Virus record (IMG/VR): IMGVR_UViG_3300034197_000017
Location: 1-64,000 of that record
From: a virus
Lineage: Duplodnaviria > Caudoviricetes
Length of the DNA stretch: 64,000 bases
Strand: one strand, 5' to 3'
A model generated the notes under the pieces. It had not been told where the DNA came from, ran no database searches, and saw only the letters and a program-made list of their open reading frames with translations. Each line of letters begins with the position of its first letter. The first letter of the stretch is position 1. The position numbers were made by a program, and so were the translations under genes. This document shows positions 3,608 to 63,845 of this stretch, in pieces.

Positions 3608-3756
3608 TTTATCTAAATTAATGTGTAGTTAACATTTTCTAACGTGGTCAATATTCCGGTGAATTTTGGAGATATTGAGGTAAATCAACGATTTAGAATT
3701 TTAGCCAGGTCATTTTCGAGAATGTTATGTATAGTGTATTAGGGAATAGGTTTTTG

Positions 3757-3798
3757 ACATTTTGAGTGTGGTGCGTCTACCAATTCCGCCATCCGCCC
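3757..3798 (-). mobile_element. putative attP core: 5' half of tRNA-Leu(CAA)
   Basis: Minus strand GGGCGGA TG GCGGAATTGGTAGACGC A CCACA CTCAAAA TGT gives the acceptor 5' strand, D arm and CAA anticodon loop; similarity ends 3 nt after the loop. It lies about 260 nt from the integrase start, with phage-like genes on both sides. Confidence 0.8.
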
Positions 3799-4060
3799 AA
3801 AAGTAAAACTTATATCCCCTTCAATCCTCCTTTTCCCAAAACCACCCTTAAACTGTAGCACCAAAACACCTAACAGTTCAAGTCTCTTCCCTTCTATATA
3901 AGGTATTCAAATAGAAAATTACCTGATTGTCCTTACATAACTTCATAAACTTACCCAAGTTTTAGCTCGACAATCGCTGTTTGTAGAAAATCTGTAGAAA
4001 TTTAGACGGATAACTACTACTCGTACCGACTTCACTTTAACTAGACATAGAGGAATACCT

Positions 4061-5209
4061 ATGAAGTTCACCTTATCCATAGATAAAAATGCATATAGAG
4101 TTAGCTTTGTCTTGGAAGGTAAACGTAAAGTTATGTATCTTGGCACTAGTGATGAAGAGGTAGCTAGACAGATACAATCCCGAATGACTAACGATTGGGA
4201 AAGAGGAGAATTTGATATCAGTCTTGCTTCCTATAAAGTGGGTTTCAAATTGCTCGATAAGGCAATCCAGTACCAAGAGATTCGGAAAATTTCTCTGCTA
4301 GAAAAATTAACCGATATTAAACTGCTCTATGTCTGGGATAAATGGGTAGAGGAACTTGATTTACCCGATGCCACTAGGAATAATCACTATCACTGCATCA
4401 GGCAGATGATAAAGAAGGTTAATCCTATCTGGAATGAGGTGGATTGGTACAAAGAGTCTACTCTCTCTGCTTCTACTTGGAATATTAGGAGAAGGGCAAT
4501 CAATTCCTGTATTAAGTGGGGATTAGAGGAAGACTTAATAAAGGGTAAAAATCCTTGGAGTAAATTACGCGCTAGAAAAACAGATAGGGCTAATGTTAAT
4601 CCTCTAAATAGAGAGGAAATTAAACTGGTAATCACTGCTTTTAGTGAAAACACTTACTGTTCAGAATTCTCTCCAGTTAAACATAGCTACTATGCCCCAT
4701 TCCTTAAGTTCCTTTTTCTAACTGCTGTTAGACCGGGGGAAGCTACGGCTTTACAGTGGAAGCATATTGATTTTCAAAATAATGTAATTGAAATATCTCA
4801 AGCTAGTTCTCGTAACTTAGCTAAATCCCCAACAACTACTAAACGAATTATTAAAGATACTAAAACTGGGGATATCAGATATCTACCCATGAATAAAACT
4901 CTCAGAGGGGTATTAGAGGCTCATAGACCTTTGAATTATAGTAAGGATGACTTAGTATTCAAAGGGGCTAGAGGTGGCTCTGTGTTGGATTACAGAGCCT
5001 TTAGAGAGGTATGGGAGAAGGTCTTAGCTGGATTGGGTTTAGAGTATCGGAATCCTTATCAGACCAGACATAGCGCATTAAGTCAGATAGCGATGGAGCA
5101 CGGTTTAATTGCTGCTAGTAAGATAGCTGGACATAAATCTACTGAAATGGTGAGTAGACATTATGTGAAATTTGTAGGTGAACTAGGTCAAGTCATGCCA
5201 GATTTTTAG
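4061..5209 (+). CDS. int: tyrosine recombinase / phage integrase
   Basis: Catalytic motifs LTAVRPGEA (R), KDTKTG (K), PYQTRHS, GHKS..VSRHY (H, Y), with an N-terminal arm-binding-like region. Confidence 0.95.
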   Translation: MKFTLSIDKNAYRVSFVLEGKRKVMYLGTSDEEVARQIQSRMTNDWERGEFDISLASYKVGFKLLDKAIQYQEIRKISLLEKLTDIKLLYVWDKWVEELDLPDATRNNHYHCIRQMIKKVNPIWNEVDWYKESTLSASTWNIRRRAINSCIKWGLEEDLIKGKNPWSKLRARKTDRANVNPLNREEIKLVITAFSENTYCSEFSPVKHSYYAPFLKFLFLTAVRPGEATALQWKHIDFQNNVIEISQASSRNLAKSPTTTKRIIKDTKTGDIRYLPMNKTLRGVLEAHRPLNYSKDDLVFKGARGGSVLDYRAFREVWEKVLAGLGLEYRNPYQTRHSALSQIAMEHGLIAASKIAGHKSTEMVSRHYVKFVGELGQVMPDF

Positions 5210-5303
5210 GTTAAAGATAAGACTCTCGAAAATATAATATAATTTGAATAAGAAATAAGTATATTAAACTAAATTTTCTAGCTAGAAAAATAACATACGA
5301 ATT

Positions 5304-6107
5304 ATGTATCAAAGAACAAGACAATCGAGATTTAATTCACGTCAACAAAGTGCAACCTTTATGCTTGACCCTACTCAACTCATGCATGGGTTGAATGGGG
5401 TTGATTGGGAAGCTATGAGGCAAGCTGGTGGTACTACCCTTAGTGCATTGAGAGATAATGGAGCTGGCTATCTGAATCAGGGTATGGATGCTGCTAGACA
5501 TCTGGCAAGTCAGGCTCCTGATTTATCGGGTTTGGGTGGAGCTATTTCGGGTAGAGCTGCTGATTTGCAACAGCATCTTGCTCCTTATGCTCAACAAGCT
5601 GGTGATGCTATGTCTGGTTTGGGTGGAGCTATTTCAGGCAAGGTTGCTGGACTTCAACAACAACTGAGTCCTTATGCTCAACAGGCTACCGAACAATTGG
5701 GTAGAGTGGGTAGTCAAGTAGGTGATGCAGCTCAAGCCTTTCGGGGTATGCCTACTGCTGCTCAAGTTACTGTAGGTGCAGCGGGTGCTGGTGCTGGTAC
5801 TGCTGGTGTAGGTGTAGCTAGACGTTTGAGAGCTAGTAAAATGGCTAGAGATGCTGCTGCTGCTGCTCAAGCTGCTCCTGAAATGGCTCAAGCTGCTCAA
5901 CCTGGTAGATTACAGCAAGCTATGGGTTATGCGAGACGTAATCCTCTAGTAGCTGGTGGTGCTGCTTTAGGTGCTGTGGGTCTAGGTGTTGGTGGTGCTG
6001 CTTTGGCTAATAGACAATCTACTGACTATGCTCATAGAGTTCATTCCATTGCCTCATTTACATCTAACCCCGAAAACCTCTCACTATTTAATCAATATCG
6101 TAGATAA
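5304..6107 (+). CDS. Gly/Ala/Gln-rich glycine-zipper protein, putative head-internal/ejection protein
   Basis: GAAGAGAGTAGVG and AGGAALGAVGLGVGGAAL segments; SATF near the N-terminus and IASF near the C-terminus. Confidence 0.6.
   Translation: MYQRTRQSRFNSRQQSATFMLDPTQLMHGLNGVDWEAMRQAGGTTLSALRDNGAGYLNQGMDAARHLASQAPDLSGLGGAISGRAADLQQHLAPYAQQAGDAMSGLGGAISGKVAGLQQQLSPYAQQATEQLGRVGSQVGDAAQAFRGMPTAAQVTVGAAGAGAGTAGVGVARRLRASKMARDAAAAAQAAPEMAQAAQPGRLQQAMGYARRNPLVAGGAALGAVGLGVGGAALANRQSTDYAHRVHSIASFTSNPENLSLFNQYRR
5529..5692 (+). repeat. 87-bp tandem duplication (2 copies) within a CDS
   Basis: GGTTTGGGTGGAGCTATTTC starts at 5529 and again at 5616; it encodes two SGLGGAISG..A.LQQ.L.PYAQQA units. 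Confidence 0.85.
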
Positions 6108-6502
6108 TGAAACTTCTCTCTATTCCTGACCCTAATAAAGTAGTATCTTCGGTTGTACAATCTCAATTAAAGAAACATGCATTACCGTTAGCTCTTACTG
6201 GTTTAGGGTTAGGTGTAGGGGGAGCTGCTTTAGGTGCTGGAATTGGATACAATTCTGGCAGAGCTTCTGTTTACGATAGACTCTATAAAGATAATAAACT
6301 AGCAGTAAATATGTCTAAATTCTCATATATGGCTGAATTTGGATTCATGCCACCAAAAATAGGTAGATTAAAAAAAGGTATTCAGGCAGGTAAATCCGCT
6401 TTAGCTGCTAGTGGTGATTTAGTTAACTCCAGTTCTGCTGTTAGAAAAAAGGCTACTAGTAAGCTGAATAAGCTCTCCCAACTCGCTAGAGAATATACCT
6501 GA
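6107..6502 (+). CDS. glycine-zipper protein
   Basis: LTGLGLGVGGAALGAGIGY followed by an internal KFSYMAEFG motif; start overlaps the upstream stop. Confidence 0.6.
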   Translation: MKLLSIPDPNKVVSSVVQSQLKKHALPLALTGLGLGVGGAALGAGIGYNSGRASVYDRLYKDNKLAVNMSKFSYMAEFGFMPPKIGRLKKGIQAGKSALAASGDLVNSSSAVRKKATSKLNKLSQLAREYT

Positions 6503-6540
6503 TATACTGATACCCATTTAGCTAACACATAGTTATCTCT

Positions 6541-7647
6541 ATGTGTTTTTTGTATAATCTAATAATGCTACTTAAACATTCAAACGATTTACCTTCTACT
6601 TCAGATACTTTTTCTATAGGGGAACTAGCTGCTACTTTGCCTGCTGGTATGCTCTTTACTAAAAATATTAATGGTCAATTAATTAGAATTAATCCAGGTA
6701 TCTTTAACTTAATTGACACACCTGAATTTAGTGTAGATACTTTATATCAAAACTCAATTCTAAAATTACAATCTAAAGATAGTCAGGTAACTCTAACGAC
6801 TATCTTACCTATCTTTTCCTTAGCTGGACTTGGAGGAGTTGAACTAGATTCAAACTTAACGATAGAAAATTATTTAGGGGTTGATGGTAGTGGACATATC
6901 ATCAATAAACCGAAACCTGAATTTAATTTAATGGGTTTATCTGATGTTCTCACAGTTCCCCTAACATCAGACCTAGATAACTACTCACTCACATTTGTTT
7001 ATAGTCCCTTTCCTATACAGGATACTGATAAAGATTTCTATGCTACTCCTACTTATGGTAATTGGAGATTATTGCCAGAAGCTACCAAAATTACTACCTT
7101 CTCTGATGTATATACCATATTACCTAACTACATCATTAACTATCCTGAGTTTGTTTACTTAGTACTGAAAGTAGTATCTGACCCTCCACCATCTAATCTT
7201 CAGGGATATAAAGTTCAACTCTATGGGCTAGAGATAGAAATAGATAAAAATCCCACTCTTTCCTCTAACTTGGATTCCAATCAAAACTCTATTTATAATT
7301 TAGGGTATAAGGAACATATCCTTTCCCTAACTCATACGATTGAATCGGTATCTCTAGATATCTCTACTGCCTCTTGTTTTATCCTGAATTGTTCAGATGA
7401 TGTTATTGAACTTAATTTAGATATTTCCCATAACATTGAATTAAACACAATAAAATATATTCAAGTATCTTTAATAAACTTAAAGGGATATCTTAAATTA
7501 AATTCCAATATAAGGTTTGAAAATGGACAACCTCCTATACTGACAGGAGTTAATACAATGTTAAGCTTTATGTTATATAGTGATATAGATGGAGTCAAGA
7601 TTACTTGCCTTCAAAAATCTAATAATTTATTGAAAATAGAGGAATAA
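6541..7647 (+). CDS. putative tail fibre-associated structural protein
   Basis: 368-aa ORF (start may be at 6565). The C-terminal beta domain resembles the C-terminus of 50932..52536, and it precedes a fibre chaperone gene. Confidence 0.5.
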   Translation: MCFLYNLIMLLKHSNDLPSTSDTFSIGELAATLPAGMLFTKNINGQLIRINPGIFNLIDTPEFSVDTLYQNSILKLQSKDSQVTLTTILPIFSLAGLGGVELDSNLTIENYLGVDGSGHIINKPKPEFNLMGLSDVLTVPLTSDLDNYSLTFVYSPFPIQDTDKDFYATPTYGNWRLLPEATKITTFSDVYTILPNYIINYPEFVYLVLKVVSDPPPSNLQGYKVQLYGLEIEIDKNPTLSSNLDSNQNSIYNLGYKEHILSLTHTIESVSLDISTASCFILNCSDDVIELNLDISHNIELNTIKYIQVSLINLKGYLKLNSNIRFENGQPPILTGVNTMLSFMLYSDIDGVKITCLQKSNNLLKIEE

Positions 7648-8309
7648 TGGAATTGGAATTTTATGTATTTATAGATAGTCTTGAAAAGATTGTACTATTA
7701 AAATCTGAAATAAAATCTCATATTAGACGTAATAATCCAAATATCATTTTCCCTGAAAGTTTTCCAGATGCAGTATTAGCAGGATTTAATTATTTTCCTG
7801 TAGAGGTAAATAAACAGTATTTAGATTGTGAAGGGAGTCTAAAACCTTATTGTAGTTGGAGAAATGATTCTGTATATGAGCAATCAGGTAAATGGTATGT
7901 TGATGCCATAGAGTATTTAGATGAATCTAAGATTAATTTAGGATGGGAAGAGGTAAGAGCTAATAGAAATAAACTGTTAGAAAATACTGACTGGATTACT
8001 TCCTCCGATATGCCTACTGATATTAAACATAAGTATGTCCTATATAGACAATTATTGAGAGATTGTACTAATATTAGTAGATATCCATCTGAGGTTAGAT
8101 TTCCAACAGCACCTGAACTTACTCCATCTACTTTCGTATCTGATACGTTATCTGGAGATGAAGTAACTAAGATAAGAAATTTTAGAAATAAAACTCCTCA
8201 GTGGAATAAATTTTTAGTGGAGTGGGAAGCTACCAACTTTACATATAATAAGTCATATGTAAATAATCTACTATTACTTTACACAGGACTAACTGTTAAT
8301 CAAATTTAA
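7647..8309 (+). CDS. tail fibre assembly chaperone-like protein
   Basis: WEEVRANRNKLLENTDW...YVLYRQLLRD...P.EV.FP is the pattern of phage tail fibre assembly chaperones. Confidence 0.75.
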   Translation: MELEFYVFIDSLEKIVLLKSEIKSHIRRNNPNIIFPESFPDAVLAGFNYFPVEVNKQYLDCEGSLKPYCSWRNDSVYEQSGKWYVDAIEYLDESKINLGWEEVRANRNKLLENTDWITSSDMPTDIKHKYVLYRQLLRDCTNISRYPSEVRFPTAPELTPSTFVSDTLSGDEVTKIRNFRNKTPQWNKFLVEWEATNFTYNKSYVNNLLLLYTGLTVNQI

Positions 8310-11300
8310 TGAAACTATTAGCTTCCTATAACCATACATTTTCTACCGGGAAATCAATTACTTCTCAAGTTTGGAAAGTTATAGAAAATAAGGATAAGTT
8401 AACTGGACTATGGCTTGCTAGTCCAGACTATATAGAAACCTCCCTAATAGGTACATCACTCACCAATAGTAAGGTGGTGACATGGGTGAATACCTTGGAA
8501 GACGGTAATTATCTATATAGTTCTCAAAATAATGAGCCAACACTAACCATTAATGATAGTCAATTTAACTATCAACCCTCTATAGATTTTTCTGATGACT
8601 CGTTTAATCAACTAAAACTTAAATTTCCTATTCAAGCTAAGACTATAATTATTGTTTACTTAACTAGAGTTTCAGGTAGTTACCTTATCTATGCTCCTAG
8701 ACAAACTCAGAATTCTAGTGAAAGTGAAACTAGATATTATGATGCTTTTCCACCAGGAACTAATGGCACTCTTTGGGGTAATGAAGCATTAGATAATAAT
8801 AGAACCTATAACTCTAGGTCTAGAATTAATGGTAGAGACGTATCATCAAATACCTATGTTCCCCTAAATAGAGCTAGAGTGCTGACAATAACTGATTTTG
8901 GTGGAAATGGACAGATACAGACTATTTCTGGATTCGGAGGACAACAGGGGATAATTGGAGGACTAAATCCTAGATATTTACAAAACTCAGTTAAAGGTAA
9001 AATAGCCGCTATATTAACCTTTTCAGATATCCTCCCTGATGATGAGTTAAAGGCCATAGAGACAGCATTAGGTACTACCTATGTAAACTATACAGGAGCA
9101 GTACTAACATCCACTCCTAAGCTTAAAACTATACTTGGTAACTACTTTTCGTTTGACCTGAGTACTGTTGTCCTAGATGAATGGTTTGACATTACTGAAT
9201 ACTCTTTAATTTCCCCTATAGATGTTAATCTCTCAATTACAGGGTCAGTTTTATCTGGACTTGTTACAGTTCCCTATAACGGTAAGCTTACGTTCAAGGT
9301 AATAAATTCTGCTGGATTAGAAAAAGTATTTGAATTAGATTTGGAATTATGTCGTAATGATGACATTGTAGACTCCTTTCCTAAATCTTCTAGTATATCT
9401 CTGGCCTTAAGTACCTACCAAAATAGCTCAGATGCTGAATTTACAGGTATATATGTTGATAGCCAGAATATTATCTCCTATTGGGAAGACTGTAGACGAG
9501 TAAGTAACTCCTCTGTAACTAATAACTCAGTTCCTTTATTGACTTCTACCCCATCAGTGGAACCAACCTTAGTTAGAAATGACTCATTAGTAAATAACTC
9601 TAATTCAGTTAGATTTACTGGAAATTCCTCTATACTTAGTAGTAGCTATATTACAGGTAAGTCTTTTCTTTGGGTCTATATTCAAGAGAACTTTGGTGTT
9701 AGACCTATGTTAAATACATTCCCTGATATCAAGGGTAATGGAGAACTATGGACTATCTCTAATACCAATCAAATTCATGGTCAAACAGATATTACTAAGC
9801 TTATAACTACTGTACAGACCGTATCAGTAAATACCTTAAGCTACAAAAATAAATTAAATACTTTAGTTTTTATAACTGCAACTCAACCTGAAAATGTACC
9901 TATAGTATTTAATGGATTTACTGGTCTTAGAGGTAAACTATTATTTTTCTGTAGCTGGAATGAGCAGTTAACTTCAACTGAGTTTAAGTCTGTTATTACT
10001 TCACTATCTCCTAGATACTTAAGTACTCTAAACCCTGTCATTGTAAACGCTGATACTGAATATAGAACTCAAGCTAATGTTACTGTAGACCTTAAAACTA
10101 AAATAGTAGATTTACAAAACTTATCTTTAAGTTATCTAATTACAGAGAATAATTACTCTGCTACTATATCTAGTGGTATTCTTTCATTCACAGCAGTAAG
10201 AGATGAAGTAGTATCCTTTACCATAGAAGTATCGAATACTATCCCATTGACTACCACAATACAGTTTAATGTGGATATAACTCTAAAAACTAATACTTTA
10301 TATAGAACCTTAAAGGATGTTATTGGTACATCTAATATTAAGTTATTCTTAATAGCCGAACTAGATTCAATTACTTTAGATGACCAGAACATTAGTGAAT
10401 GGGATGACTATAGAGAATCTGGTAATTTTCTAACGGGTACTAATGTCTTAATAGATAGCTTGTATCAATTAGATGGAAACTATACTGCCGATTTTGATGT
10501 AGATGGAAGCTCCTATCTCACGTTAGAAAATCCTGTATCAGGTAAGTCTTTTGTTATTGCCTATATCAAAAAAGACTTAGGTAGTGGAAAATCATTCTTA
10601 CTGGGTCAAAGTAGTAGTGCTGATTTCTCTTCTGGAGAGTCAGGTAGGTTATTTGATGCTGACCTTACTGCAAGTGAAATTCTAAATTCCTCTACGTATG
10701 TAAACTCTAAGGAAAGGGAACCATCATATACATTCACCCCATTCATTCTAAATACTATAGTCATCAATAGCACTGCTGAGTTAACCGTAGATACTATAGC
10801 CAAAGATAGAGTATTCACAGATAGTGGTGTAAAGGGATACATTCCTCTAGCTGTAGTGGTAGATAGAAATATAACCGAACTTGAAGCAGTTCAAATTAAC
10901 ACTCTTATACGAGACTATTACGATAGCCCAAAATTCATATTACTTCTGCACTGTAATACTATCTCAGACTCATCTCTTAGAAATAAAGCATTAATTACAA
11001 CTGGAAATGTAAACTCTTCAATAAAGAAATTCGGTAGTTCATCTTATCCCTTAGTATCTAATAGCCTAGTAGTTCCTATCTTGGTAGAAAATGATACAGA
11101 TTTTGCTTTTATTACAGAAGATTTTACTGTATCCTTCTGGATTAACTTAAATAAAACAATAACTGAACAGCTAATTATTTATAATCAGCCAGATTTAATT
11201 ATATATATTGAGGGAGATAAGCTTTATGTAGGAAGGAATACATTTTCTAGCTTATCTTTAGTTTCCTATACCCTTATAAATACCTTTTATGGGTCATTTA

Positions 11301-11542: not shown

Positions 11543-11963
11543 AAATATCATCTAAACTGGTAACTTCTTTACCTCTATTTTCTAACGTATATTTTCTTCT
11601 GTTCTCCCATACTTTCCTCATAAATTCTTTTTTCTTTTTCACCTGCTCTACTTCTGATGGAGTTAGAGTTCCCTTATAATCCCTAACTCTTAATACAAAA
11701 TGTGGACTAAATTTGAATTTTGGGTAGTATTGTGTAGTGCCGTGTCTATTACCTTTAATATTAACGCTGAACTTACCTATTCCAAAGACACTTACATCTT
11801 TATCTTCTTTTAATTGAGCTTCTACATATGCCCAAAAGTAGCGTAAGACAGTACTGACTTGAAATTCTGTAGGTAAGGAATCTGGGTATTCCTCATTAAT
11901 TAGGTGCATTATTGCTACTACATAGTCTGGAGTTCCATATCTCCCTAACGCTTTTGTACGCAT
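11508..11963 (-). CDS. HU/IHF-like DNA-binding protein
   Basis: VSTVLRYFWAYVEAQLKEDKDVSVFGIGKFSV...PKFKFSPHFV follows the HU/IHF helix, beta-arm and PKF.FS pattern. Confidence 0.7.
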   Translation of the reverse strand: MRTKALGRYGTPDYVVAIMHLINEEYPDSLPTEFQVSTVLRYFWAYVEAQLKEDKDVSVFGIGKFSVNIKGNRHGTTQYYPKFKFSPHFVLRVRDYKGTLTPSEVEQVKKKKEFMRKVWENRRKYTLENRGKEVTSLDDIFKDLHTPQLEQ

Positions 11964-12021
11964 ATTTATATGATTTTAGGTTAAAATAATCTTAATATAT
12001 TATACACACTAATCAGATTCT

Positions 12022-13746: not shown

Positions 13747-13984
13747 GTCTCTCTGACATAAAGAAAAATGTGACTGGTTTGGAATATAGTTTGGAGAACT
13801 CTAATAGACGATAAGAGTCTACACTATATTCCCCTCTTTCATATTTGGAAATAGTATCTTGGGATAGCCCAAATTGGAAAGCTACTTCTTTTTGAGTGAG
13901 TTTTGCTGATTTTCTAGCATTACGTAAAAGAAGTCCTTGGTTACGTTTGAAAGTTTCTTGATGGGTATCCCTATTTAATAACAT
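13739..13984 (-). CDS. XRE-family HTH transcriptional regulator
   Basis: LRNARKSAKLTQKEVAFQFGLSQDTISKYERGE is a canonical HTH_3/XRE motif. Confidence 0.9.
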   Translation of the reverse strand: MLLNRDTHQETFKRNQGLLLRNARKSAKLTQKEVAFQFGLSQDTISKYERGEYSVDSYRLLEFSKLYSKPVTFFFMSERLK

Positions 13985-55352: not shown

Positions 55353-56195
55353 TTACTTATTTATTAGATATATAAAGTCAGCATTCTCTAGATACCCATC
55401 TCTGTAAAAATTTAGATAAAAATACAACTGCCCATAGCTATAAATAGAGTTATATATACTAGAATAGTAGGCCACTTCTGTATATTCTATATCACTTACA
55501 GGCTTTTCAAGTACGGTGACATTCTTTACTATGGGTATAGCTCTATTCATCGCTACCTTACTAGACTTAGCACCTATAGTATATAAGCTATGTCTCTGCT
55601 CTATTGTTAATGCCATATCCTCAGTAAAAGTCAAAGTTCTGAGATAATCGGCAGTGACTTCCTGACTAATAAACTGTCCTGTAGTTAACTTAAAACTAGT
55701 ACAGGTAGGATTTATAAAAATATTTATATCCTCAATAGTATCTATATTGGATATAGTAAATCTCAATGTACAGTATATATCCTCATCAGTTTCGTTAAAG
55801 AGGACTATATCCTCTAATTCAGACCCTATAACCTCACTTTTTATAATATAAGTTCTAGTTGCAGAGAAGTCTGTAATACTGGTTTCAGTGTAAGCTATAT
55901 CATCTTCTGTATATATAGATACTAGTTGCTGATAAAACTCTAAGTCATCTCCTGACTTCTTTTTTAGGAGTACGGGTAGATAGGTACTATTAAACTGTAA
56001 ATAAATTAAACATCCATGTAAGTAAGCTGATGGTTGTAAAACATATGCAGTATTTAGTTTTTTAACTAAAAACTGTTTTGAAGGAGTTTTATCTAGCTTA
56101 AAAGAATTCCCTGATTGCCTTACAGTTTTCGATGCTATCCACATCACCCTATACTTACCCTCCCAGATGTAAAACTTACTGCTGTCAGACTCCAA
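55353..56195 (-). CDS. hypothetical protein, tail block
   Basis: 280-aa ORF abutting the next start. Confidence 0.65.
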   Translation of the reverse strand: MESDSSKFYIWEGKYRVMWIASKTVRQSGNSFKLDKTPSKQFLVKKLNTAYVLQPSAYLHGCLIYLQFNSTYLPVLLKKKSGDDLEFYQQLVSIYTEDDIAYTETSITDFSATRTYIIKSEVIGSELEDIVLFNETDEDIYCTLRFTISNIDTIEDINIFINPTCTSFKLTTGQFISQEVTADYLRTLTFTEDMALTIEQRHSLYTIGAKSSKVAMNRAIPIVKNVTVLEKPVSDIEYTEVAYYSSIYNSIYSYGQLYFYLNFYRDGYLENADFIYLINK

Positions 56196-56500
56196 GATGA
56201 GAACTTAGCTATTCCAGCTATTCTAAACTTAGCACCCTCCGTTACGTCTATTACTGTCCAACTTTTTCCCCTAAAGGTGAATGTTGCTCCAAAACCAGTC
56301 TTACCAGGAGCAGGTGTAGGAGCTGTAGTAATACCCTTAAATGTGATAGTTACGGAAGGTAAACTATAATTTCCTGAAATTACAATACCACCATGTTCCA
56401 CTAAAGCCGTTATACCTTGGGCAGATATTTTTCCGAAACTTACACTATCTTCAGGAATAGGGATATCAAATAATTTCTCATTTTCATAATGGATAGACAT
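56144..56500 (-). CDS. small tail protein, paralogue of 57750..58208
   Basis: KLFDIPIPEDSVSFG...TFKGI versus KVFNVPVSPDAISQG...DLKGI. Confidence 0.55.
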   Translation of the reverse strand: MSIHYENEKLFDIPIPEDSVSFGKISAQGITALVEHGGIVISGNYSLPSVTITFKGITTAPTPAPGKTGFGATFTFRGKSWTVIDVTEGAKFRIAGIAKFSSWSLTAVSFTSGRVSIG

Positions 56501-56644
56501 TCTAGTTAGAAAATTACTTACTCTATTTATATCTTAATACTTTTATGTTAATTAAGATTCAGAGGTACTCGTTTCACTGCGTCTCTGTTCGATTTCTTCC
56601 AATAGTGTACCATAGGACAAAAATAGGTAAAAATACCTAATATA

Positions 56645-56675
56645 TTGACAAAATCTAAATTTAGGTGATTAAATT
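56645..56675 (+). promoter_or_regulatory. probable sigma70-type promoter of the inserted cassette
   Basis: TTGACA at 56645 with a weak -10 (TAAATT, 19-nt spacer); AAATCTAAAT in the spacer. Confidence 0.5.
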
Positions 56676-56678
56676 AGA

Positions 56679-57011
56679 TTGGAGTATATAAGAGTGTATA
56701 TGGATTTAAGGTTAGAGGAAAATTGGGTAGATAGTGAAGGTAATCCAGATGGAGCTATTTCATGTGGAATTGGATATACTATAGCTTGGCAAAGAGGCTC
56801 ACTAGAACATGGAAGAACAGGTGCTTTTCTAATTGAGGTGTTAACGTCTTGTTTTAAACAATTAGAGCGTTATCAAGACGGTAAATTCGCTTGTAATGAG
56901 AATGAGTTGGCATTATTTCACATAAATCAAGCATTAATTCTTCTAAATCAAAGACTAGACCGTAGAAAAGAACAAGGAACTCTAGGAACACATAAAACAG
57001 ATGCTAAATGA
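56679..57011 (+). CDS. tad1: Tad1-like anti-defence sponge protein (start may be ATG 56700)
   Basis: WQRG...GAFLIEVL...LERYQDGKFACNENELALFHINQALILLNQRLDRRKEQGTLGT parallels Tad1 as I recall it (FQKG...GV...L...FQ.GPF..REN..AL.H.EEAL...N.R...R....VLGT). Confidence 0.8.
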   Translation: MEYIRVYMDLRLEENWVDSEGNPDGAISCGIGYTIAWQRGSLEHGRTGAFLIEVLTSCFKQLERYQDGKFACNENELALFHINQALILLNQRLDRRKEQGTLGTHKTDAK

Positions 57012-57216
57012 TACTTACTATGTACCAGAAGGAATAATCACTGATACCTCTGAGGAACTTACAGTACATATTTCACCTGATAATGTAAATAAACTTCAAA
57101 TTTTAGCCTTAATTCAAGACTGTAATATAGATGAAGTCTTATCGATGGCTATAGACACCGAGTTCACTATCAAACAAGATGTTTATCCTACCGGACTTGA
57201 CACTTTAATCCACTGA
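57001..57216 (+). CDS. hypothetical protein (possible ribbon-helix-helix)
   Basis: LTVHISPDNVNKLQILALIQDCNIDEVLSMAI resembles an RHH strand-helix-helix. Confidence 0.5.
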   Translation: MLNDTYYVPEGIITDTSEELTVHISPDNVNKLQILALIQDCNIDEVLSMAIDTEFTIKQDVYPTGLDTLIH

Positions 57217-57233
57217 ACTAAATCTAAATTAAA

Positions 57234-57452
57234 ATGAATAGTAGTATTTATTACAAGACATTTAGATGCCCGGAATGTGGCTCTACTGAACCATCTAGTT
57301 TGTTTATTAAAGAGTCACCTCTATGTAATGCATGTCTAGCTAATTTTCTATCGGCTCATGTTCCAACAATGGAGATTACCTCTAATAAGTATAGAAATCA
57401 GCATCAATTGGATATCTTGAAACAAGGTAGTAATGAAGAGGAGTCTGAATAA
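57234..57452 (+). CDS. small zinc-finger-like protein
   Basis: CPECG...CNAC. Confidence 0.55.
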   Translation: MNSSIYYKTFRCPECGSTEPSSLFIKESPLCNACLANFLSAHVPTMEITSNKYRNQHQLDILKQGSNEEESE

Positions 57453-57682
57453 TGAGTTATCCCTATTTTATTTTTGCTGGAAGTAATTTTTATGCTAAAG
57501 GTGGATGGAAAGACTATATTGATAGGTTTTATAGTCTTGATGATGCCCGTAGAGCTATTGTTGAAACTGACTCTGCCTTTATTATTGGTGGTGTAGAGTA
57601 TGAATGGTATCAAATTGTAGAAATTGGAGATGGGACTATTGGCTCATCTATCATTGAATCTAAAGGTGAAGCTTGTACATAA
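57452..57682 (+). CDS. hypothetical phage protein
   Basis: YFIFAG..FYAKGGWKDY motif, common in small phage ORFs. Confidence 0.6.
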   Translation: MSYPYFIFAGSNFYAKGGWKDYIDRFYSLDDARRAIVETDSAFIIGGVEYEWYQIVEIGDGTIGSSIIESKGEACT

Positions 57683-57695
57683 ACTTTAGATAGGT

Positions 57696-57726
57696 AAAAA
57701 TCCCCTACTTTTTCTAGCAGGGGATT
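57696..57726 (-). terminator. intrinsic terminator between convergent genes
   Basis: ATCCCCT/AGGGGAT stem with a T5 tract on the minus strand; the loop contains GCTAGAAAA. Confidence 0.75.
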
Positions 57727-57749
57727 AATATTTTAATCTAAATTTAAGA

Positions 57750-58208
57750 TTAGACTGAAGCAACAACCAAGTCTGTTAGACAGGTAACTTGGAAAGAGCT
57801 ATAGTTGGCACTGCTACTACCAATCTGGATAGTACCACCATCCTGATATGAGAAGGGAATACATTGAACCGTTCTGTAGGTGAACATGCCAGCGCCAGCA
57901 GGGTTATTTAGGTCAATCTCACCCAAAGCCAGAGACTCAGCATTAGCATTGCATATTTCAATGATTTCATCGGCCTTAGTGGTATTAATACCCTTTAAAT
58001 CAAACGTATAGGTACGTAGTTGAATGTTAACTGTAGTAACAAAATTACCCATGATAACAGAGGGGCTTGCTAACGATACAGTACCCTGTGAAATAGCATC
58101 AGGTGAGACTGGTACGTTAAATACTTTTGTATACTGAATGTTTAAGTTGGATGCCATATGGATATAAATATAAATTATTTTCTTATATATCCATAATATC
58201 ATTTCCAA
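57750..58208 (-). CDS. small tail protein (start probably MASNLN), paralogue of 56144..56500
   Basis: Shared N-terminal motif; structural-gene codon bias. Confidence 0.55.
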   Translation of the reverse strand: MEMILWIYKKIIYIYIHMASNLNIQYTKVFNVPVSPDAISQGTVSLASPSVIMGNFVTTVNIQLRTYTFDLKGINTTKADEIIEICNANAESLALGEIDLNNPAGAGMFTYRTVQCIPFSYQDGGTIQIGSSSANYSSFQVTCLTDLVVASV

Positions 58209-58244
58209 ATATGCCCTAAATTAAAATTATTTTTCTAACTGGGG

Positions 58245-58273
58245 TTGACAAATAAATCTAAATAACGTAATCT
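58245..58273 (+). promoter_or_regulatory. sigma70-type early promoter
   Basis: TTGACA (58245), 17 nt, TAATCT (58268). Confidence 0.75.
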
Positions 58274-58303
58274 ATAAAAAGTCACCTGTTATCGGAGAAT
58301 ATA

Positions 58304-58699
58304 ATGTCTAATACATATGATGTGGATTCCCCTCCTTTCTATACACATCCTTCATATATTGGATGTGCTAATGAGTTGCTTCCTTCTGATGAAAGGCTAG
58401 ATAAATACGATGCTCAATATAGTCAATATGGTTTTGATGATACCTGTACTTGGAATTTAGACCTAAGTATCGTCAAGTTCATTCTTCCTAGATTGAAGAG
58501 ATTTAGAGAAGTATCTAATGGGTATCCAGCAAGACTTAACTCAATGGCTGAATATCACGAAGTACTAGATAAAATCATAAAGTCATTTACTATTATGGAT
58601 AAACAAAACCAATATCTAGTAGCTGAGGAAGAATCAGATAAAGAAGTAAAAGAAGGTCTACACTTATTTGTAGAATATTTAAGTGATTTGTGGTGGTAA
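58304..58699 (+). CDS. conserved hypothetical phage protein
   Basis: TWNLD..IVKFILPRLKRFR..SNGYP...LDKII..F...LWW pattern; GGAG RBS. Confidence 0.7.
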   Translation: MSNTYDVDSPPFYTHPSYIGCANELLPSDERLDKYDAQYSQYGFDDTCTWNLDLSIVKFILPRLKRFREVSNGYPARLNSMAEYHEVLDKIIKSFTIMDKQNQYLVAEEESDKEVKEGLHLFVEYLSDLWW

Positions 58700-58702
58700 G
58701 GT

Positions 58703-58963
58703 ATGCAAGCCTCATTCAAAATAGAAAATACTAAAACAGAGGAAGGTAAATTTAGGTCAACCTATTGGGTCATAGATAGAATAAGTCAATTTTCCCCTGA
58801 ATTACCTGAACATCTATATAGAGGATGGTTATTTTATGAGGAATTTATCTTTATCTCAGATGTAATAACTCCAGAAAACATCACTATCAATGAACAAGCT
58901 CCTATAGCTGATGTAAAGTTCCTACTAGATTACTTTCAGATTAACTATGGACAATCAATCTAA
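58703..58963 (+). CDS. hypothetical protein
   Basis: 86-aa ORF in the operon. Confidence 0.65.
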   Translation: MQASFKIENTKTEEGKFRSTYWVIDRISQFSPELPEHLYRGWLFYEEFIFISDVITPENITINEQAPIADVKFLLDYFQINYGQSI

Positions 58964-59420
58964 TTTCAGATTAGGATATAGCTCTGCATTATCTAAGGTA
59001 GACTCTATCCTAGGTTCTTACAATTTTGAGGAACCTTATTATGCTACAGAAGCTGATTATGTTTCAGCTAGAGATAGACAAGCATTAATTAACGAATTAA
59101 GGCAAGAAATGACTCTATTAAATTTCACAACTCCTAGTTTGTATGACCAGTTAAGTAAATACCTTACTGATTTGGGATATGCAGCAACAGTAAATACAAG
59201 AGAATGGAGGATTGAAAGAAGTACACATCTAAATTTCACTATCGGTCTATTTACTAGATTCGTTAGTAATACTGAAGAGATAAATCTAGAATTTAACTTT
59301 GATGATATCTATAGCAATAAAAAACGTATCACCTACCCAGTGAAATGTTTTTCTGTTCTAGAAGCAGAGGGTTATATCAGGGTAATGCATGTTCTCAATG
59401 TCCAATTTGATTCTAATTAA
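58947..59420 (+). CDS. hypothetical protein
   Basis: 157-aa ORF in the operon. Confidence 0.65.
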   Translation: MDNQSNFRLGYSSALSKVDSILGSYNFEEPYYATEADYVSARDRQALINELRQEMTLLNFTTPSLYDQLSKYLTDLGYAATVNTREWRIERSTHLNFTIGLFTRFVSNTEEINLEFNFDDIYSNKKRITYPVKCFSVLEAEGYIRVMHVLNVQFDSN

Positions 59421-59438
59421 AATCTAACAGAGGAAAAT

Positions 59439-60434
59439 ATGTACCAACTATTTGTTTACGGTAAAGACTCAGCATCACCTAGCCCGATGTTCTATGGAAA
59501 TACAGTAGAAGGTTCTCCAACAGTGGAGAAAATTACTAAACTCCATGACCTAAATTCCTGGATGGCAGAGAAAATCCCTAACTTCAATGAACAAACTGTT
59601 CAAGTAAAGGATAGTTACCATATTAGACGTACTAATGAACTTCCTGAAACTCAATATCACGGAATTATCTTACATCCCTATGTCAATACTAGCTATAAGG
59701 TAATGCAATACTCTGATGCAGTTAAATGGCTAGACCCATTCCTACAAGAACAGATGCTTACGGTAGATTCATCCTTGATGCTAGATAAAGGGGCAAAGTT
59801 CTCTGTTCTCTGTGACATCAATGTAGAAGCTAAAATTGCAGAGGGAGATACGGTAAACCGCTATCTTCTACTAGCTCTATCTCATGATAAGTCTATGCGA
59901 GGTCTATTCTACTGTGATACTAGACCTATATGTGCTAATACTCTAGCGATGGCTAAGATGGAAGGCTTACGTAGTCCAGAAAAGAATCTAGTATTAGATG
60001 ATGCCAATCCAGAGAAGAGTCTAAAACTCGCTAGAAAATTGATTGACCTGACTACTCAAAAATTCCATGATTCTACGGTTCTAGAATACAAATCTTTTGC
60101 TAAATTGGAACTGCAACCTCAGCAAGTAGATTATATCTTCCGTACTATTCTGAATATGCCACTAGGAACGATTGAAGTGGGGGATGTTAGTGATTCTATC
60201 TGGACAAGTTATACCGAGCTTGGTGAGGCATATAAAGCCAGTCCTGGCATGGAATTGATTAATGGCGATACTGGTTGGAGAGTATTTAATGCAGTAACCT
60301 ACTTTAATCAAAATCTGGGTAAAACTGAATCTCAAAGCTACCAAAAGAATTTGTTTGGTGCAGGTTCTAGATACCGCAAACAGACAACTGAATTGTTAAC
60401 TCAACTTCTACCCTCATCCGCTATCCCAGTGTAA
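59439..60434 (+). CDS. DUF932 / TIGR03299-type phage-plasmid protein
   Basis: YKVMQYSDA..W, RYLLLALSHD, TRPICANT, GDTGWRVFNAVTYF motifs. Confidence 0.8.
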   Translation: MYQLFVYGKDSASPSPMFYGNTVEGSPTVEKITKLHDLNSWMAEKIPNFNEQTVQVKDSYHIRRTNELPETQYHGIILHPYVNTSYKVMQYSDAVKWLDPFLQEQMLTVDSSLMLDKGAKFSVLCDINVEAKIAEGDTVNRYLLLALSHDKSMRGLFYCDTRPICANTLAMAKMEGLRSPEKNLVLDDANPEKSLKLARKLIDLTTQKFHDSTVLEYKSFAKLELQPQQVDYIFRTILNMPLGTIEVGDVSDSIWTSYTELGEAYKASPGMELINGDTGWRVFNAVTYFNQNLGKTESQSYQKNLFGAGSRYRKQTTELLTQLLPSSAIPV

Positions 60435-60439
60435 TTAAA

Positions 60440-60685
60440 ATGACTACTTTTCTAACTGTATATTTTTCTATCGGACTGTCCTTATCTCTATGGATACTAT
60501 TTAGAGATGTAGTAGTCAAAGATAAAAAATATTGGAAATTAGTTTCGGAATGCCAGAGAGAGTTTGACCTAGATATAGAGTATATAGAAAAAGCAATTAA
60601 AATTGTAACCTTATTTTTTGCATTATTTCTATGGCCTATTCTCCTTCTTAACGGTTCATTTAACCCACGCTCTAACTCTAAGTAA
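60440..60685 (+). CDS. small membrane protein
   Basis: Two hydrophobic segments; LFLWPILL motif. Confidence 0.6.
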   Translation: MTTFLTVYFSIGLSLSLWILFRDVVVKDKKYWKLVSECQREFDLDIEYIEKAIKIVTLFFALFLWPILLLNGSFNPRSNSK

Positions 60686-60703
60686 AAAACAAAGGATAAA
60701 ACT

Positions 60704-60904
60704 ATGAAAGTGTATAAAGTACTTATTGCAGGAACATTGACAGCAGTAATTCTTATTGGAGGACTTCTTTATACCATTCCTACCTATAAAGTGTGGGCTG
60801 CTGAGCAAGACGGAAAAGCTATTTTGGCTAGAGCTGAATCAACTAAAAAAGCTCAAATTCTAGATGCTTCTCCCAAACAATTCACTGTCAATACTGCTAA
60901 ATAA
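60704..60904 (+). pseudogene. probably truncated phage membrane protein (PxYxVW...GxAxLAxAE family)
   Basis: A transmembrane helix, then PTYKVWAAEQDGKAILARAESTKKAQI; the coiled-coil that normally continues is missing and the ORF ends after 66 aa. Confidence 0.45.
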
Positions 60905-60933
60905 CCTATAACCTAGCTACCCTCAGTCAAGTA

Positions 60934-61191
60934 TTGGGGGTAGTAAACCTACAATTCATGGAAATTAACTATCCCTATATCCAGTTATCTAAGCATCCTG
61001 ACTATGCTGGATTCTATGTTGTATCTGAAACTGGAGAACCACTAAAGATAAATTCTATTACCCTGATAGGAGCAGTAAAAGATGCTCTAAAGTTGGGATA
61101 TGATATTAATCTAAAACAATGGGTAGATGAAAAAGGGTCAATTTCACCAATTCTTTTTACAGTAGATAAGGATAAGTATGAACGAAAATAA
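60934..61191 (+). CDS. hypothetical protein
   Basis: 85-aa ORF; the true start may be the internal ATG (MEINY). Confidence 0.55.
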   Translation: MGVVNLQFMEINYPYIQLSKHPDYAGFYVVSETGEPLKINSITLIGAVKDALKLGYDINLKQWVDEKGSISPILFTVDKDKYERK

Positions 61192-61696
61192 AGATAAGAT
61201 GGTACGGCTACTTGAACTTCTAGATAATGGAGTTCAACCTATCATTCGATGGGTAAAAAATGATTACTATTCTATTGAGGAGTGTGATGCTTACTCTGTC
61301 TCAATGCTTTGTAAAGTTACTCGATATTCTACTTTACCTCCTATATTCGATGGAGATATCCTATATAGAGTCTATACTGATTTTTCAGAGTTTGAGTCAT
61401 ATAATATAGCCATTTCTAACCAATTCTATACTGGAGAGTATCCACAATGGCATGAAACATCTACTTATCCTGAAGATAAGAAATACACTGTCTATATGCA
61501 GGTATCAGGAGAAGAATCCCCTGATGAATCATCTGGATGTATGTTTGAGTTTGTAGAAACAGAATCATTAACCACATTTGATGAGTATAAGAAATCCAAC
61601 TCATCCGAATCTTATATTTCGTGGTTAGAAGGTATGACTATTCAACATCTTAATTTAGTTAGAGGTTTAATTGACGTTATCACTTCTGAGATTTAA
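61178..61696 (+). CDS. hypothetical protein, tandem paralogue 1
   Basis: PIIRW...E..Y.V.M.C...TDFSEFE.YN...WHE...YP.D...SSGCMFEFV...YI.WLE. Confidence 0.75.
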   Translation: MNENKDKMVRLLELLDNGVQPIIRWVKNDYYSIEECDAYSVSMLCKVTRYSTLPPIFDGDILYRVYTDFSEFESYNIAISNQFYTGEYPQWHETSTYPEDKKYTVYMQVSGEESPDESSGCMFEFVETESLTTFDEYKKSNSSESYISWLEGMTIQHLNLVRGLIDVITSEI

Positions 61697-61702
61697 TTTA
61701 TC

Positions 61703-62209
61703 ATGAACGATAATTATACTAAAATGTCTGCTCTAATTGAGTATCTAAAGACAGGATGTTCTCCTATAATTAGATGGATTGACCCTTTTATTGAAGAGTT
61801 TGAATCCTATGATGTAGGTATGATATGTAGAGCTATAGGAATCAAAGAAACTGATTTTGCTCTCAAATCTTCAGGTATAGTTATTTACGGAATAACTACA
61901 GATTTTAGTGAGTTTGAAGAATACAATAAATCTATAGCTAAAGAAACTTGGAATTACTCATCTGATGATTCAAGCAAACAATTTGTTAAATGGCATGAAT
62001 CTTCTTTTTATCCTAAAGATAGAAGAGAGGTTATATATTTACAGTTAGCAGAAGAATTTTCAGGGGAGAAATCATCTGGATGTATGTTTGAATTTGTGAA
62101 TACATCTTCTCTAAGTGTGTTTGAGAAATATAAAGAATCAAAGACAGAATTACCTTATGTCGCATGGTTAGAAAAAGCAGTCTTTGATTCAGATATTTAT
62201 TTTAACTAA
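61703..62209 (+). CDS. hypothetical protein, tandem paralogue 2
   Basis: Same motif order as 61178..61696. Confidence 0.75.
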   Translation: MNDNYTKMSALIEYLKTGCSPIIRWIDPFIEEFESYDVGMICRAIGIKETDFALKSSGIVIYGITTDFSEFEEYNKSIAKETWNYSSDDSSKQFVKWHESSFYPKDRREVIYLQLAEEFSGEKSSGCMFEFVNTSSLSVFEKYKESKTELPYVAWLEKAVFDSDIYFN

Positions 62210-62226
62210 TCTTTATACTTTTGTAG

Positions 62227-62255
62227 TTGACATTTAGATTTAGTTTAGATAGACT
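62227..62255 (+). promoter_or_regulatory. sigma70-type promoter of the RNA cluster
   Basis: TTGACA (62227), 17 nt, TAGACT (62250). Confidence 0.75.
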
Positions 62256-62386
62256 GATAAAGTAAACCTCGTTGAAGGGTTAATCAAAACTAGGGAAAAA
62301 CATCTATTATCGTTGAAAGCCAAAATTGTTATATAGCTAGTTAGAAAATATAGATTTATATAATTTAGCTAGCTTTTCTACACCTA

Positions 62387-62474
62387 GCGGGTAAGAACCA
62401 GCGTTCAGAGGAGCCTTATAAACTCTTTGCTCCAGATTAGAGCCTTTGGGATGGGGCAGCACCATCTACCCGTA
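62387..62474 (+). tRNA. non-canonical tRNA-like RNA, anticodon UAU (Ile?), long variable arm
   Basis: Acceptor GCGGGTA/TACCCGT; mini D arm AAC-CAGC-GTT; anticodon loop CTTATAA; V arm GCTC-CAGATTA-GAGC; T arm GATGG-GGCAGCA-CCATC. Confidence 0.6.
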
Positions 62475-62481
62475 TAGCACT

Positions 62482-62529
62482 AGACGGTACTGGCTTAGTA
62501 AGATAGAGTTCGCCTACTATCACCGTTTA
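62482..62529 (+). ncRNA. minihelix-like RNA (acceptor stem plus T-arm-like hairpin)
   Basis: AGACGGT/ACCGTTT 7-bp stem enclosing ACT-GGCTT-AGT and GATAG-AGTTCGCCTA-CTATC. Confidence 0.35.
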
Positions 62530-62539
62530 CTGCTAATTA

Positions 62540-62707
62540 ACTTGGTTGAGGGCTTAGGCTAAAACTCTTCCAAGTAAAGTGAGAGTCTTTAATGACTCAA
62601 CCCTCTTACAGGGGATATAAACTATAGGTGTAAGTAACTATAGATGTTATGGAAAGCTACCTACCAGACTTAGGTGATACGTAGAGTATCAATAATGAGA
62701 CTTTCCA
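62540..62707 (+). ncRNA. structured non-coding segment
   Basis: Consecutive stems ACTTGG/CCAAGT, GAGTC/GACTC, CCCT/AGGG, CTATAG/CTATAG, and a TGGAAAG/CTTTCCA junction with two inner hairpins; no ORF. Confidence 0.4.
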
Positions 62708-62750
62708 CTAAACCCGCTCTAGTAGCTCAGATGGATAGAGCAATTGCCTT

Positions 62751-63403
62751 CAATTGGAGCTTTTATAGCGAAACAAAAGCTATAAAATGCACAGCGCTAT
62801 ATCGGTGAAACCTTAACAGTTAGGCTGATGGTAATACCGAGGAAACTGACCAACAAATTACCCGTATGTTAGTGTTGTATAATAAAACTATATTTATAGT
62901 TTCTTTTATGCATCATTTTACAAAAAACAAAGGGGATTTAGGTGTATTAAAGGTAAAGGCAGATTTAGTATCTAAAGGCTATACTGTAGGCTCTTTGGAT
63001 ACCGAACATAGTCCTTTTGATGTGGTGACGTATAGAAACCAAGAATTCAAACGAATTCAAGTTAAATACCGTTCACTAAGGAAAGGGAAGTTAGAGATAC
63101 GTTTTTCTTCTAGCTGGGCTGATAAACACGGTTCCCATGTTCGGTTTGTAGATAAATCAGAAATTGACGTATATGCAGTATACTGTCCCGAAACAGATTG
63201 CTGCTATTATTTTAATCCTTCTGACTACAAAAAAAGTTTGACTTTGAGAGTAAATGCATCTCTAAATAATCAGCAGCAAAATATACACAACGCTGATGAT
63301 TTTAGACAGGTTCCGTAGAGACTACACGCGTTGCACCTGTAATGGTGAAGATATAGTCCAGACCACAAACGTTTATGACGGTAACTAAAGTTATAGTGGT
63401 ACG
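62751..63403 (+). mobile_element. group I self-splicing intron (653 nt)
   Basis: P1 CUU|C-AAUU-GGAG with U.G at the splice site; P2 TTTTATAGC/GCTATAAAA; core elements ATATCGGTGAAA, AATACCGAG, AGAGACTACACG, AAGATATAGTCC; terminal G at 63403; P10 TTGG/CTAA. Confidence 0.92.
62866..63318 (+). CDS. intron-encoded PD-(D/E)XK homing endonuclease (I-Ssp6803I-like); start may be ATG 62908
   Basis: KGDLG...YTV...SPFDVV...RIQVKYR...DVYAVY...CYYF pattern; located in the P6 loop, with its TAG overlapping the P6/P7 junction. Confidence 0.88.
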   Translation: MLVLYNKTIFIVSFMHHFTKNKGDLGVLKVKADLVSKGYTVGSLDTEHSPFDVVTYRNQEFKRIQVKYRSLRKGKLEIRFSSSWADKHGSHVRFVDKSEIDVYAVYCPETDCCYYFNPSDYKKSLTLRVNASLNNQQQNIHNADDFRQVP

Positions 63404-63441
63404 CTAAGCAATCGGTCACAGGTTCAAGTCCTGTCTAGAGC

Positions 63442-63533
63442 GCTGTACCTAGACGTAGGTGCAAAACCATTTAGTAAAAGTAGAAGTGGTTTCAGGCACA
63501 TTGCCTATGAGGTTCGACTCCTCACTACCAGCG
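63442..63533 (+). ncRNA. degenerate tRNA-like element
   Basis: T arm TGAGG-TTCGACT-CCTCA; V arm AGGCA/TGCCT; 9-bp AAACCATTT/AAGTGGTTT stem with 11-nt loop; mini D hairpin CCTA/TAGG; imperfect acceptor. Confidence 0.45.
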
Positions 63534-63587
63534 TATTACCGGAAACGCTACTAAGTGATAGTGAGTACATTGCTGAAGCTAGACTAG

Positions 63588-63845
63588 GTGATGTATTCAC
63601 TGCCAACCTTAATATCCATAGGAGATGACTACATGACTGTATATGATGCGCTAGAAAACCTATCTGCCTTAGCTCAAAAAGGATATGGAAATATGGAGTT
63701 AGTTAATGTAGATTTAATCTTTGGGTACTCTACTCCAGTAGCTATTTATCAGGATATCTCTACAGCAAATCCTAAAACAGACTCTGGCTATTTACGTACT
63801 GTTGGAGAAGGTCAAGTATTCGTTCCTGTACAGTTTGAATATTAA
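63588..63845 (+). CDS. hypothetical protein (start probably internal MTVYD)
   Basis: GGAG RBS before the internal ATG. Confidence 0.6.
   Translation: MMYSLPTLISIGDDYMTVYDALENLSALAQKGYGNMELVNVDLIFGYSTPVAIYQDISTANPKTDSGYLRTVGEGQVFVPVQFEY

Follow-up and report, generated by a model that had tools for sequence, protein, structure and literature searches.

Primases of the DnaG type start on trinucleotides, 5′-CTA or 5′-TTA in Firmicutes and 5′-CTG in Escherichia coli, with the zinc-binding domain setting the specificity, and Okazaki fragments measure 1–2 kb (PMC2978363). The NrS-1 primase-polymerase has an 8-nt template recognition sequence, 5′-TTTGGTTA-3′, and a short GTG site is reported to work better (PMC8718748). 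Here we describe an asymmetric nine-letter DNA word, GNTAGAAAA, which is repeated within and between the genes of a large cyanophage known from IMG/VR record IMGVR_UViG_3300034197_000017, and which may be the start site of the phage's own DNA primase. The window that we analyzed is the first 64 kb of this 83,685-bp virus record (34.8% G+C; CheckV completeness, 58%). The record is that of a tailed phage, with a tyrosine integrase, a major head protein, a 1,925-aa tape measure protein and a portal protein, and belongs to a family of siphophages of about 145 kb. A literature search with the word itself returned chance matches only, and we found no paper describing it. Nor was any genome-wide primase word found in the literature, and the genome papers of Pam2 and PA-SR01, two cultured phages related to this one, describe no such word.

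A first-pass annotation of the window had reported 27 copies of CGYTAGAAAA, of which 20 carry CGT and 7 CGC, with 16 in one orientation and 11 in the other. All of them were recovered at the positions given, the minus strand holding 16 and the plus strand 11, against an expectation of 0.20 ± 0.45 (maximum, 2) in dinucleotide shuffles, and the eight extensions to CCCGYTAGAAAA were all located as well. The enrichment is genuine, but its extent had been under-called, because CGYTAGAAAA is only the C-flanked subset of a larger set whose sharp core is GNTAGAAAA. This core was present in 84 copies in the window, where 5.3 ± 2.5 were expected, and in 107 copies in the whole record (54 plus, 53 minus; approximately 8–11 expected), corresponding to a density of about one copy per 780 bp over both strands and to a per-strand spacing of 1.56 kb. 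When the background was modelled at order 3 with the motif masked, GNTAGAAAA occurred at 12.8 times its expectation (107 vs 8.3), whereas its one-letter neighbours, taken together, were observed 153 times with 163 expected (0.94). Any single-base change in the word brought its count in the whole record down to 0–19, and G occupied position −2 in 107 of the 146 TAGAAAA copies. Recognition of the word is all-or-none, because one-letter variants are not enriched. Since the flanks of the copies shared no further similarity, we are dealing with a short word and not with a dispersed repeat, and a miniature inverted-repeat transposable element was ruled out on the same ground.

Most copies (93 of 107) lie within open reading frames (ORFs), 46 in the sense and 47 in the antisense orientation, and the other 14 are intergenic, about twice the non-coding share. 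Within ORFs, GNTAGAAAA occupies every reading frame in which it makes no stop codon, and the peptides that it encodes fall into four coding contexts (xRK, x[LV]E[NK], FSx and xFLx). Synonymous-codon shuffles left 29.9 ± 3.5 copies and codon-order shuffles left 22.9 ± 2.6, both figures including the 14 unshuffled intergenic copies, compared to the 107 observed. The four coding contexts, together with codon shuffles that fell far short of the observed count, ruled out a peptide or codon artefact, and the lack of any orientation relative to genes (46:47) ruled out a promoter or a stoperator. Considering that codon-preserving shuffles, with which the first-pass annotation would have been refuted had they given similar counts, yielded only 23–30 copies and that sites are retained between relatives, as described below, selection acts on the DNA word itself, as the first-pass annotation had proposed.

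Relatives were recovered by capsid, primase and HU-like protein searches; in what follows, expected counts come from an order-3 Markov model and control counts are those of the word read backwards. The word exists in two dialects, type I (GNTAGAAAA) and type II (CAGAAARRR). Type I was found in this record (G000; 107 vs 10.8 expected) and in three relatives, namely G404 (72 vs 6.2 expected, 11.6-fold, at 27% G+C), the complete 146-kb genome G002 (83 vs 14.3 expected) and C155 (38 vs 10.7 expected), a 126.5-kb phage contig in a Chroococcidiopsis metagenome-assembled genome (G001 contig 155). Type II was found in a sister clade with about 55% capsid identity to this record, in seven records: G405 (136 vs 20.8 expected), G406 (122 vs 20.5 expected), G407 (108 vs 17.8 expected), G411 (104 vs 21 control), which is complete with direct terminal repeats, G410 (27 vs 2 control), G412 (40 vs 7 control) and the cultured Pseudanabaena phage Pam2 (host, P. 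mucicola Chao 1806; 129 vs 15 control). The type II word also occurs in both orientations relative to genes. Among cultured phages, the capsid and primase queries matched Pam2 and PA-SR01, and neither a megablast of 18 kb nor a tblastn of one ORF gave a match; a scan of metagenome contigs with the capsid alignment returned one 3-kb contig only. The sole motif-free relative was G403, a 50-kb fragment (35% complete) with 77% capsid identity, which carries neither word type (5 copies vs 4.4 expected) and in which no other word stands out. In G408, a 48-kb fragment with a distant, fused primase, only unrelated words were found: the palindrome ATTCTAGAAT at 8 sites and the word AGATGTCAATA in about 10 copies, both far above expectation. 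Independently of what reads it, the word can serve as a strong marker of lineage in this phage family.

Comparison of close type II relatives revealed that the sites are retained beyond the level of controls, for which purine/pyrimidine-rich 9-mers were used. At 89% nucleotide identity (G405 vs G406), 85% of the sites remained motif, while 55% of the control 9-mers were unchanged; the corresponding values were 75% and 29% for G405 vs G407 (81% identity) and 69% and 29% for G406 vs G407 (80% identity). At long range, by contrast, only 1 of 46 aligned sites was common to G000 and G002, which share about 45% protein identity. The positional conservation that the first-pass annotation had named as a check is thus present between close relatives, and these comparisons show that individual sites are under purifying selection but turn over in the long run.

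An attP-like sequence in the window, corresponding to the 5′ half of tRNA-Leu(CAA), places the host among cyanobacteria (Table 1). ARAGORN called no tRNA in window positions 1–64000 and an uninterrupted tRNA-Met at L011:1785–1859. None of 400 sampled cyanobacterial genomes was comparably enriched in either dialect: for type I, the maximum ratio to the reversed-word control was about 1.8, and for type II, the densest genome had 0.038 copies per kb vs 0.28 per kb in phages, where the range for both types is 0.28–1.28 per kb. In the five genomes with a perfect match to the attP tRNA segment, the type I word/control ratios were 0.9–1.7, so that none was enriched. The word is intrinsic to the phage lineage and does not belong to the host genomes sampled. 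Separately, one 6.3-Mb cyanobacterial genome, G054, contained CAGAAAAGA 237 times vs 69 for the reversed control; it was the sole sampled genome with a ratio above 3-fold, its density was still 7 times below that of the phages, and the excess could reflect prophages or a related host.

Although strands are used equally in most genomes, C155 is polar. Its word was found 31:7 on one strand irrespective of gene direction (p = 1.2e-4), while composition-matched control words were balanced (488:503), and the copies were evenly spaced (coefficient of variation (CV), 0.69; p = 0.011). The word being polar in C155, its orientation therefore matters to the reader. This result undercuts the earlier argument that the lack of strand bias speaks against a polar signal. 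C155 is also saturated with host-type CGATCG/HIP1 words (GCGATCGC, 90 times on both strands; CGATCGC, 308 times) and has kept TAGAAAA at z = 10, so that host word and own word stand side by side. In the six strand-symmetric genomes, the CV of per-strand gaps was below the label-shuffle mean in 6/6, and the number of strand switches was above it in 6/6.

Just outside the window lies a replication block encoding an exonuclease, a 300-aa protein, a helicase and PolA, with an ERF annealing protein and a single-stranded DNA-binding protein (SSB) also encoded nearby. The 300-aa protein contains a CPxC...C...CH zinc finger and the TOPRIM motifs EGEKCA and DNDxxG, the best matches of its model (pLDDT 68) in the PDB were the DnaG primases 5vaz, 2au3, 5guj and 1dd9 together with Twinkle, and its Pam2 homologue, gp126 with accession UQS95006.1, is annotated as DNA primase; the protein is hereafter called the primase. 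Its sequences fall into two clades that coincide with the two word types, with identities of 33–48% within type I, 78–85% within type II and 30–34% between them, and the zinc-finger segments differ between the clades. The motif-free G403 is without the block of about 12 kb (exonuclease, primase, helicase and PolA) at the syntenic place: in this fragment (47100–50000) the SLOG gene that comes before the block in G002 abuts a homologue of G002:12960–13493, which in G002 lies 12 kb further along, and no primase was found within the fragment. As a separate observation, the ORF extracted for the G405 primase (L073:1490–2338) starts after the zinc-finger segment and has 226 aa vs about 310 in close relatives, and a frameshift, misassembly or splitting of the gene could explain the difference.

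We tentatively propose, at somewhat less than an even chance, that GNTAGAAAA is recognized by the DNA primase that the phage encodes and marks where this enzyme begins its primers. The word, the selection on it, its phage specificity, its dialects, its orientation-dependence in C155 and the presence and fold of the primase are observed here, whereas the role of the primase as reader and the primer sequence are inferred. The type I template complement, 5′-TTTTCTANC-3′, contains 5′-CTA-3′, of which the 3′ A would go unread as the 'cryptic' base; primer synthesis would begin opposite T and C and continue across the T-tract, giving pppAGAAAA. In type II, the template would be 5′-YYYTTTCTG(C)-3′, with CTG in place of CTA and the cryptic base changed to G. 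The part shared by both dialects would then template pppAGAAA(A), the differing letter would be the uncopied 3′ base, and the RRR tail of type II would yield an all-purine primer. The primers made by T7 primase likewise consist of two bases only, A and C. As an eight-letter word is far too rare by chance, selection would have to write it into genes through the choice of codons and residues, and the resulting spacing of about one site per 1.5 kb per strand would match Okazaki fragments in length. The proposal is compatible with strand symmetry, because T7 primase pentamers, as counted here, are also about equal on both strands, and occur at about chance frequency. The wider picture, likewise at somewhat less than an even chance, is a selection-maintained 'priming grid' in this family of cyanophages, in which a DnaG/T7-type primase demands an 8–9-base word, far longer than any known for its class, and makes a fixed purine primer (pppAGAAAA...), the genome with its coding sequence is spelt to supply the word every 1.5–4 kb per strand, lineages re-spell the word together with the primase zinc finger, and one lineage uses one strand only.

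Several points weigh against a primase as the reader. The match to CTA/CTG is post hoc, and a random 9-mer holds one such trinucleotide on some strand about 40% of the time. To our knowledge, zinc-finger/TOPRIM primases need 3–5 template bases, and a strict requirement for 8–9 would be unprecedented for the class. Shared descent confounds the correspondence between primase clade and word type, since every conserved gene of the family splits likewise, and G403 is a 35%-complete fragment whose primase could lie elsewhere. Taken genome by genome, the regularity of per-strand spacing is weak (p 0.03–0.30), and an origin-centred strand switch was seen in none of the six symmetric genomes. Among the readings, primase start sites fit the data best, with a duplex binder of the HU/IHF type as the main rival.

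According to this rival, which is possible but unlikely, a phage-encoded DNA-binding protein that organizes, condenses or protects the genome binds to the word in duplex form, the reader being the HU/IHF-fold protein encoded in the window or another protein. The first-pass annotation had suggested such a genome-organizing, parS/matS-like system and had named four candidate binders (Table 1). As stated, it was not supported: parS/matS-like sites are palindromic or of dimer type and few per genome, the word is asymmetric, present in 107 copies and polar in C155, no ParB or MatP homologue was seen among the proteins scanned, and three of the four binders failed on comparison of conservation. The double-HTH (helix-turn-helix) protein was rejected, having no homologue in G002, G404, G403, G405 or G406. 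The XRE protein is unlikely, since the motif-rich G404 leaves no space for it at the syntenic place, and so is the helix-hairpin-helix protein, which has a homologue in the motif-free G403. The HU-like protein is the sole candidate to survive. It is conserved in all motif-bearing genomes examined, with homologues in G002, G404, G405 and G406, and the top PDB matches of its model were all HU/IHF (pLDDT 63, E about 0.02). A density of about one site per kb and the presence of the word in every part of the genome would fit a coating or organizing role, and the word carries an A-tract, as do many IHF-type sites. However, a duplex organizer has no obvious need for orientation, and C155 is polar; per-strand spacing is more regular than after label shuffling; and all-or-none recognition of eight bases is unusual for HU/IHF-type proteins. 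Moreover, G403 is without the word although its capsid, portal and tail genes are 38–77% identical, and an HU-like gene of G403, if there is one, would lie off the contig. With respect to gene arrangement, the HU-like and XRE repressor-like genes run opposite to the surrounding head-morphogenesis genes, and this arrangement is kept in G002, G405 and G406.

The claim that the motif is built into terminators held in part. It was borne out at 21520, where a strong hairpin is followed by a U-run, and at 57710, where the hairpin is bidirectional, but at 42805 the word merely adjoins a weak hairpin. Similarly, the half-site pair described between the integrase gene and the next gene does form a palindrome, but one that folds weakly.

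Table 1. Coordinates of the features discussed (window positions unless a record or contig is named).
Feature	Coordinates	Strand	Details
Field of 84 GNTAGAAAA copies (107 in record)	860..63658	both	word counts
attP-like 5′ half of tRNA-Leu(CAA)	3745..3815	-	42 nt 100% identical in five cyanobacterial genomes
Two overlapping copies, palindrome TTTTCTAGCTAGAAAA, between integrase gene and next gene	5274..5289	both	fold weak, z about 0
HU/IHF-fold protein with C-terminal helical extension	11508..11963	-	weak Pfam Bac_DNA_binding match
XRE-type HTH protein	13739..13984	-	Pfam HTH_3
Two inverted GNTAGAAAA copies as terminator hairpin stem behind major capsid gene (20325-21494)	21520..21543	+	-19.4 kcal/mol, z -3.84, then U-run
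Helix-hairpin-helix protein	25842..26324	+	Pfam HHH_3
Double-HTH protein	42835..43740	-	HTH matches
One copy (57710-57718) in bidirectional hairpin between convergent genes	57700..57730	-	z -3.2 plus strand, -4.9 minus strand
Thymidylate-synthase homologue and accompanying genes	L011:8726-10582 and 2682-3260 (G000 72.7-74.6 kb, 66.7-67.3 kb)		377 aa, about 100-aa insertion vs Pfam model
Primase, 300 aa, DnaG / T7 gp4 type	G000:76230-77132 (= L011:12230-13132)		zinc finger + TOPRIM; between exonuclease gene and replicative helicase gene
GmrSD_N protein and CcrM-like methylase	L011:15191-16775 (G000 79.2-80.8 kb)		between helicase and PolA genes

Another possibility, which we consider doubtful, is a Chi-like signal on single-stranded DNA that is read by a host AddAB/RecBCD-type enzyme or by the phage exonuclease-ERF pair, halting the degradation of linear phage DNA and promoting recombination-dependent replication. 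A non-palindromic, purine-rich 8–9-mer whose orientation matters in C155 would suit this role, as would the exonuclease, ERF annealing protein and SSB encoded beside the primase, and the dialects could follow host lineages, as Chi does. Chi words, however, are over-represented in host chromosomes, and none of the 400 sampled genomes is comparably enriched in this one. In addition, a search limited to RecC gave no match in the five host-like genomes, and recBCD is commonly absent from large-genome cyanobacteria (PMC5101192).

It is more improbable still that the word is the target of a phage sequence-specific DNA modification or nicking enzyme, comparable to the nick words of T5-like or tf-like phages or to sites of hypermodification. 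Strict all-or-none recognition is enzyme-like, and the phage encodes a thymidylate-synthase homologue with an insertion, DHFR, a dNMP kinase, HNH nucleases and a CcrM-like methylase. A modification target alone, on the other hand, gives no reason for a 10-fold enrichment, and known nick words are confined to a single strand, in contrast to the equal strand use seen here in most genomes. Neither the CcrM-like methylase nor the GmrSD_N protein has homologues in motif-bearing relatives, so that both were ruled out as readers. Apart from this question, the thymidylate-synthase homologue is accompanied by DHFR and a T4-gp1-like dNMP kinase, a gene set that can go with modified pyrimidines, and the short GmrSD_N (DUF262) protein is encoded directly upstream of the CcrM-like N6-adenine methylase.

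Least probable of all, and very unlikely in our view, is a by-product, either a host-wide word taken over in the manner of HIP1 or uptake sequences, a transfer that C155 shows to occur in this family with its host CGATCG/HIP1 words, or biased mutation or repair without selected function, given that no sampled host genome carries the word, that C155 keeps it alongside HIP1, that sites are retained far above control 9-mers and that one-letter neighbours are not depleted (0.94), contrary to the prediction of a conversion drive.

If the primase does read the word, the template preference of a replication enzyme would be spelt out across hundreds of codons, with effects on codon usage and protein sequence as well as on how terminators are built and foreign genes taken up. 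Such a constraint on the evolution of phage genomes was not found in searchable papers. The direction of replication would be readable from sequence alone, C155 being an example in which a one-strand word would reveal one-way replication, and the known specificity range of zinc-finger/TOPRIM primases would be extended.

Like the stoperators of Cluster A mycobacteriophages, GNTAGAAAA consists of many asymmetric sites across the genome of a temperate phage, with lineage-specific spellings. Stoperators point with transcription and serve the lysogenic repressor, whereas here the orientation relative to genes is 46:47, with type II genomes similar. Furthermore, the type II clade has no homologue of this record's integrase and yet keeps its word, and PA-SR01, a cultured member of that clade, is described as lytic (PMC10286775). 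The DNA uptake sequences of Neisseria, the uptake signal sequences of Pasteurellaceae and HIP1 likewise occur about once per kb, on both strands and in several frames within genes, with inverted pairs as terminators, but they saturate the host genome, and HIP1 is palindromic, while this word is asymmetric and confined to the phage. Chi shares with it the form of a non-palindromic 5–8-mer in one orientation on one strand, with lineage-specific spellings, and the polarity in C155 is similar; Chi, however, is a host-chromosome word read by RecBCD/AddAB, unlike this word, which the sampled host genomes do not carry and for which no RecC was found in host-like genomes. As with the T7 gp4 site, 5′-(G/T)(G/T)GTC-3′, and the DnaG trinucleotides, a zinc-binding and TOPRIM primase is encoded here, and the complement of the word contains CTA (type I) or CTG (type II) beside a constant stretch that, on a post hoc reading, would template the primer. 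The sites occur on both strands, as those of T7 do, at a per-strand spacing of about the Okazaki length. T7 gp4 and DnaG sites comprise 3–5 bases and need no enrichment, whereas here a strict 8–9 bases are maintained by selection at 6–13 times expectation inside genes, and the enzyme is known from sequence and a model. The primase-polymerase of NrS-1, for which genome-wide enrichment is not described (PMC8718748), differs in being of the archaeo-eukaryotic primase type, in reading through a helix-bundle domain and in using deoxynucleoside triphosphates, but it serves as an earlier example of a phage primase whose recognition word is long and specific.

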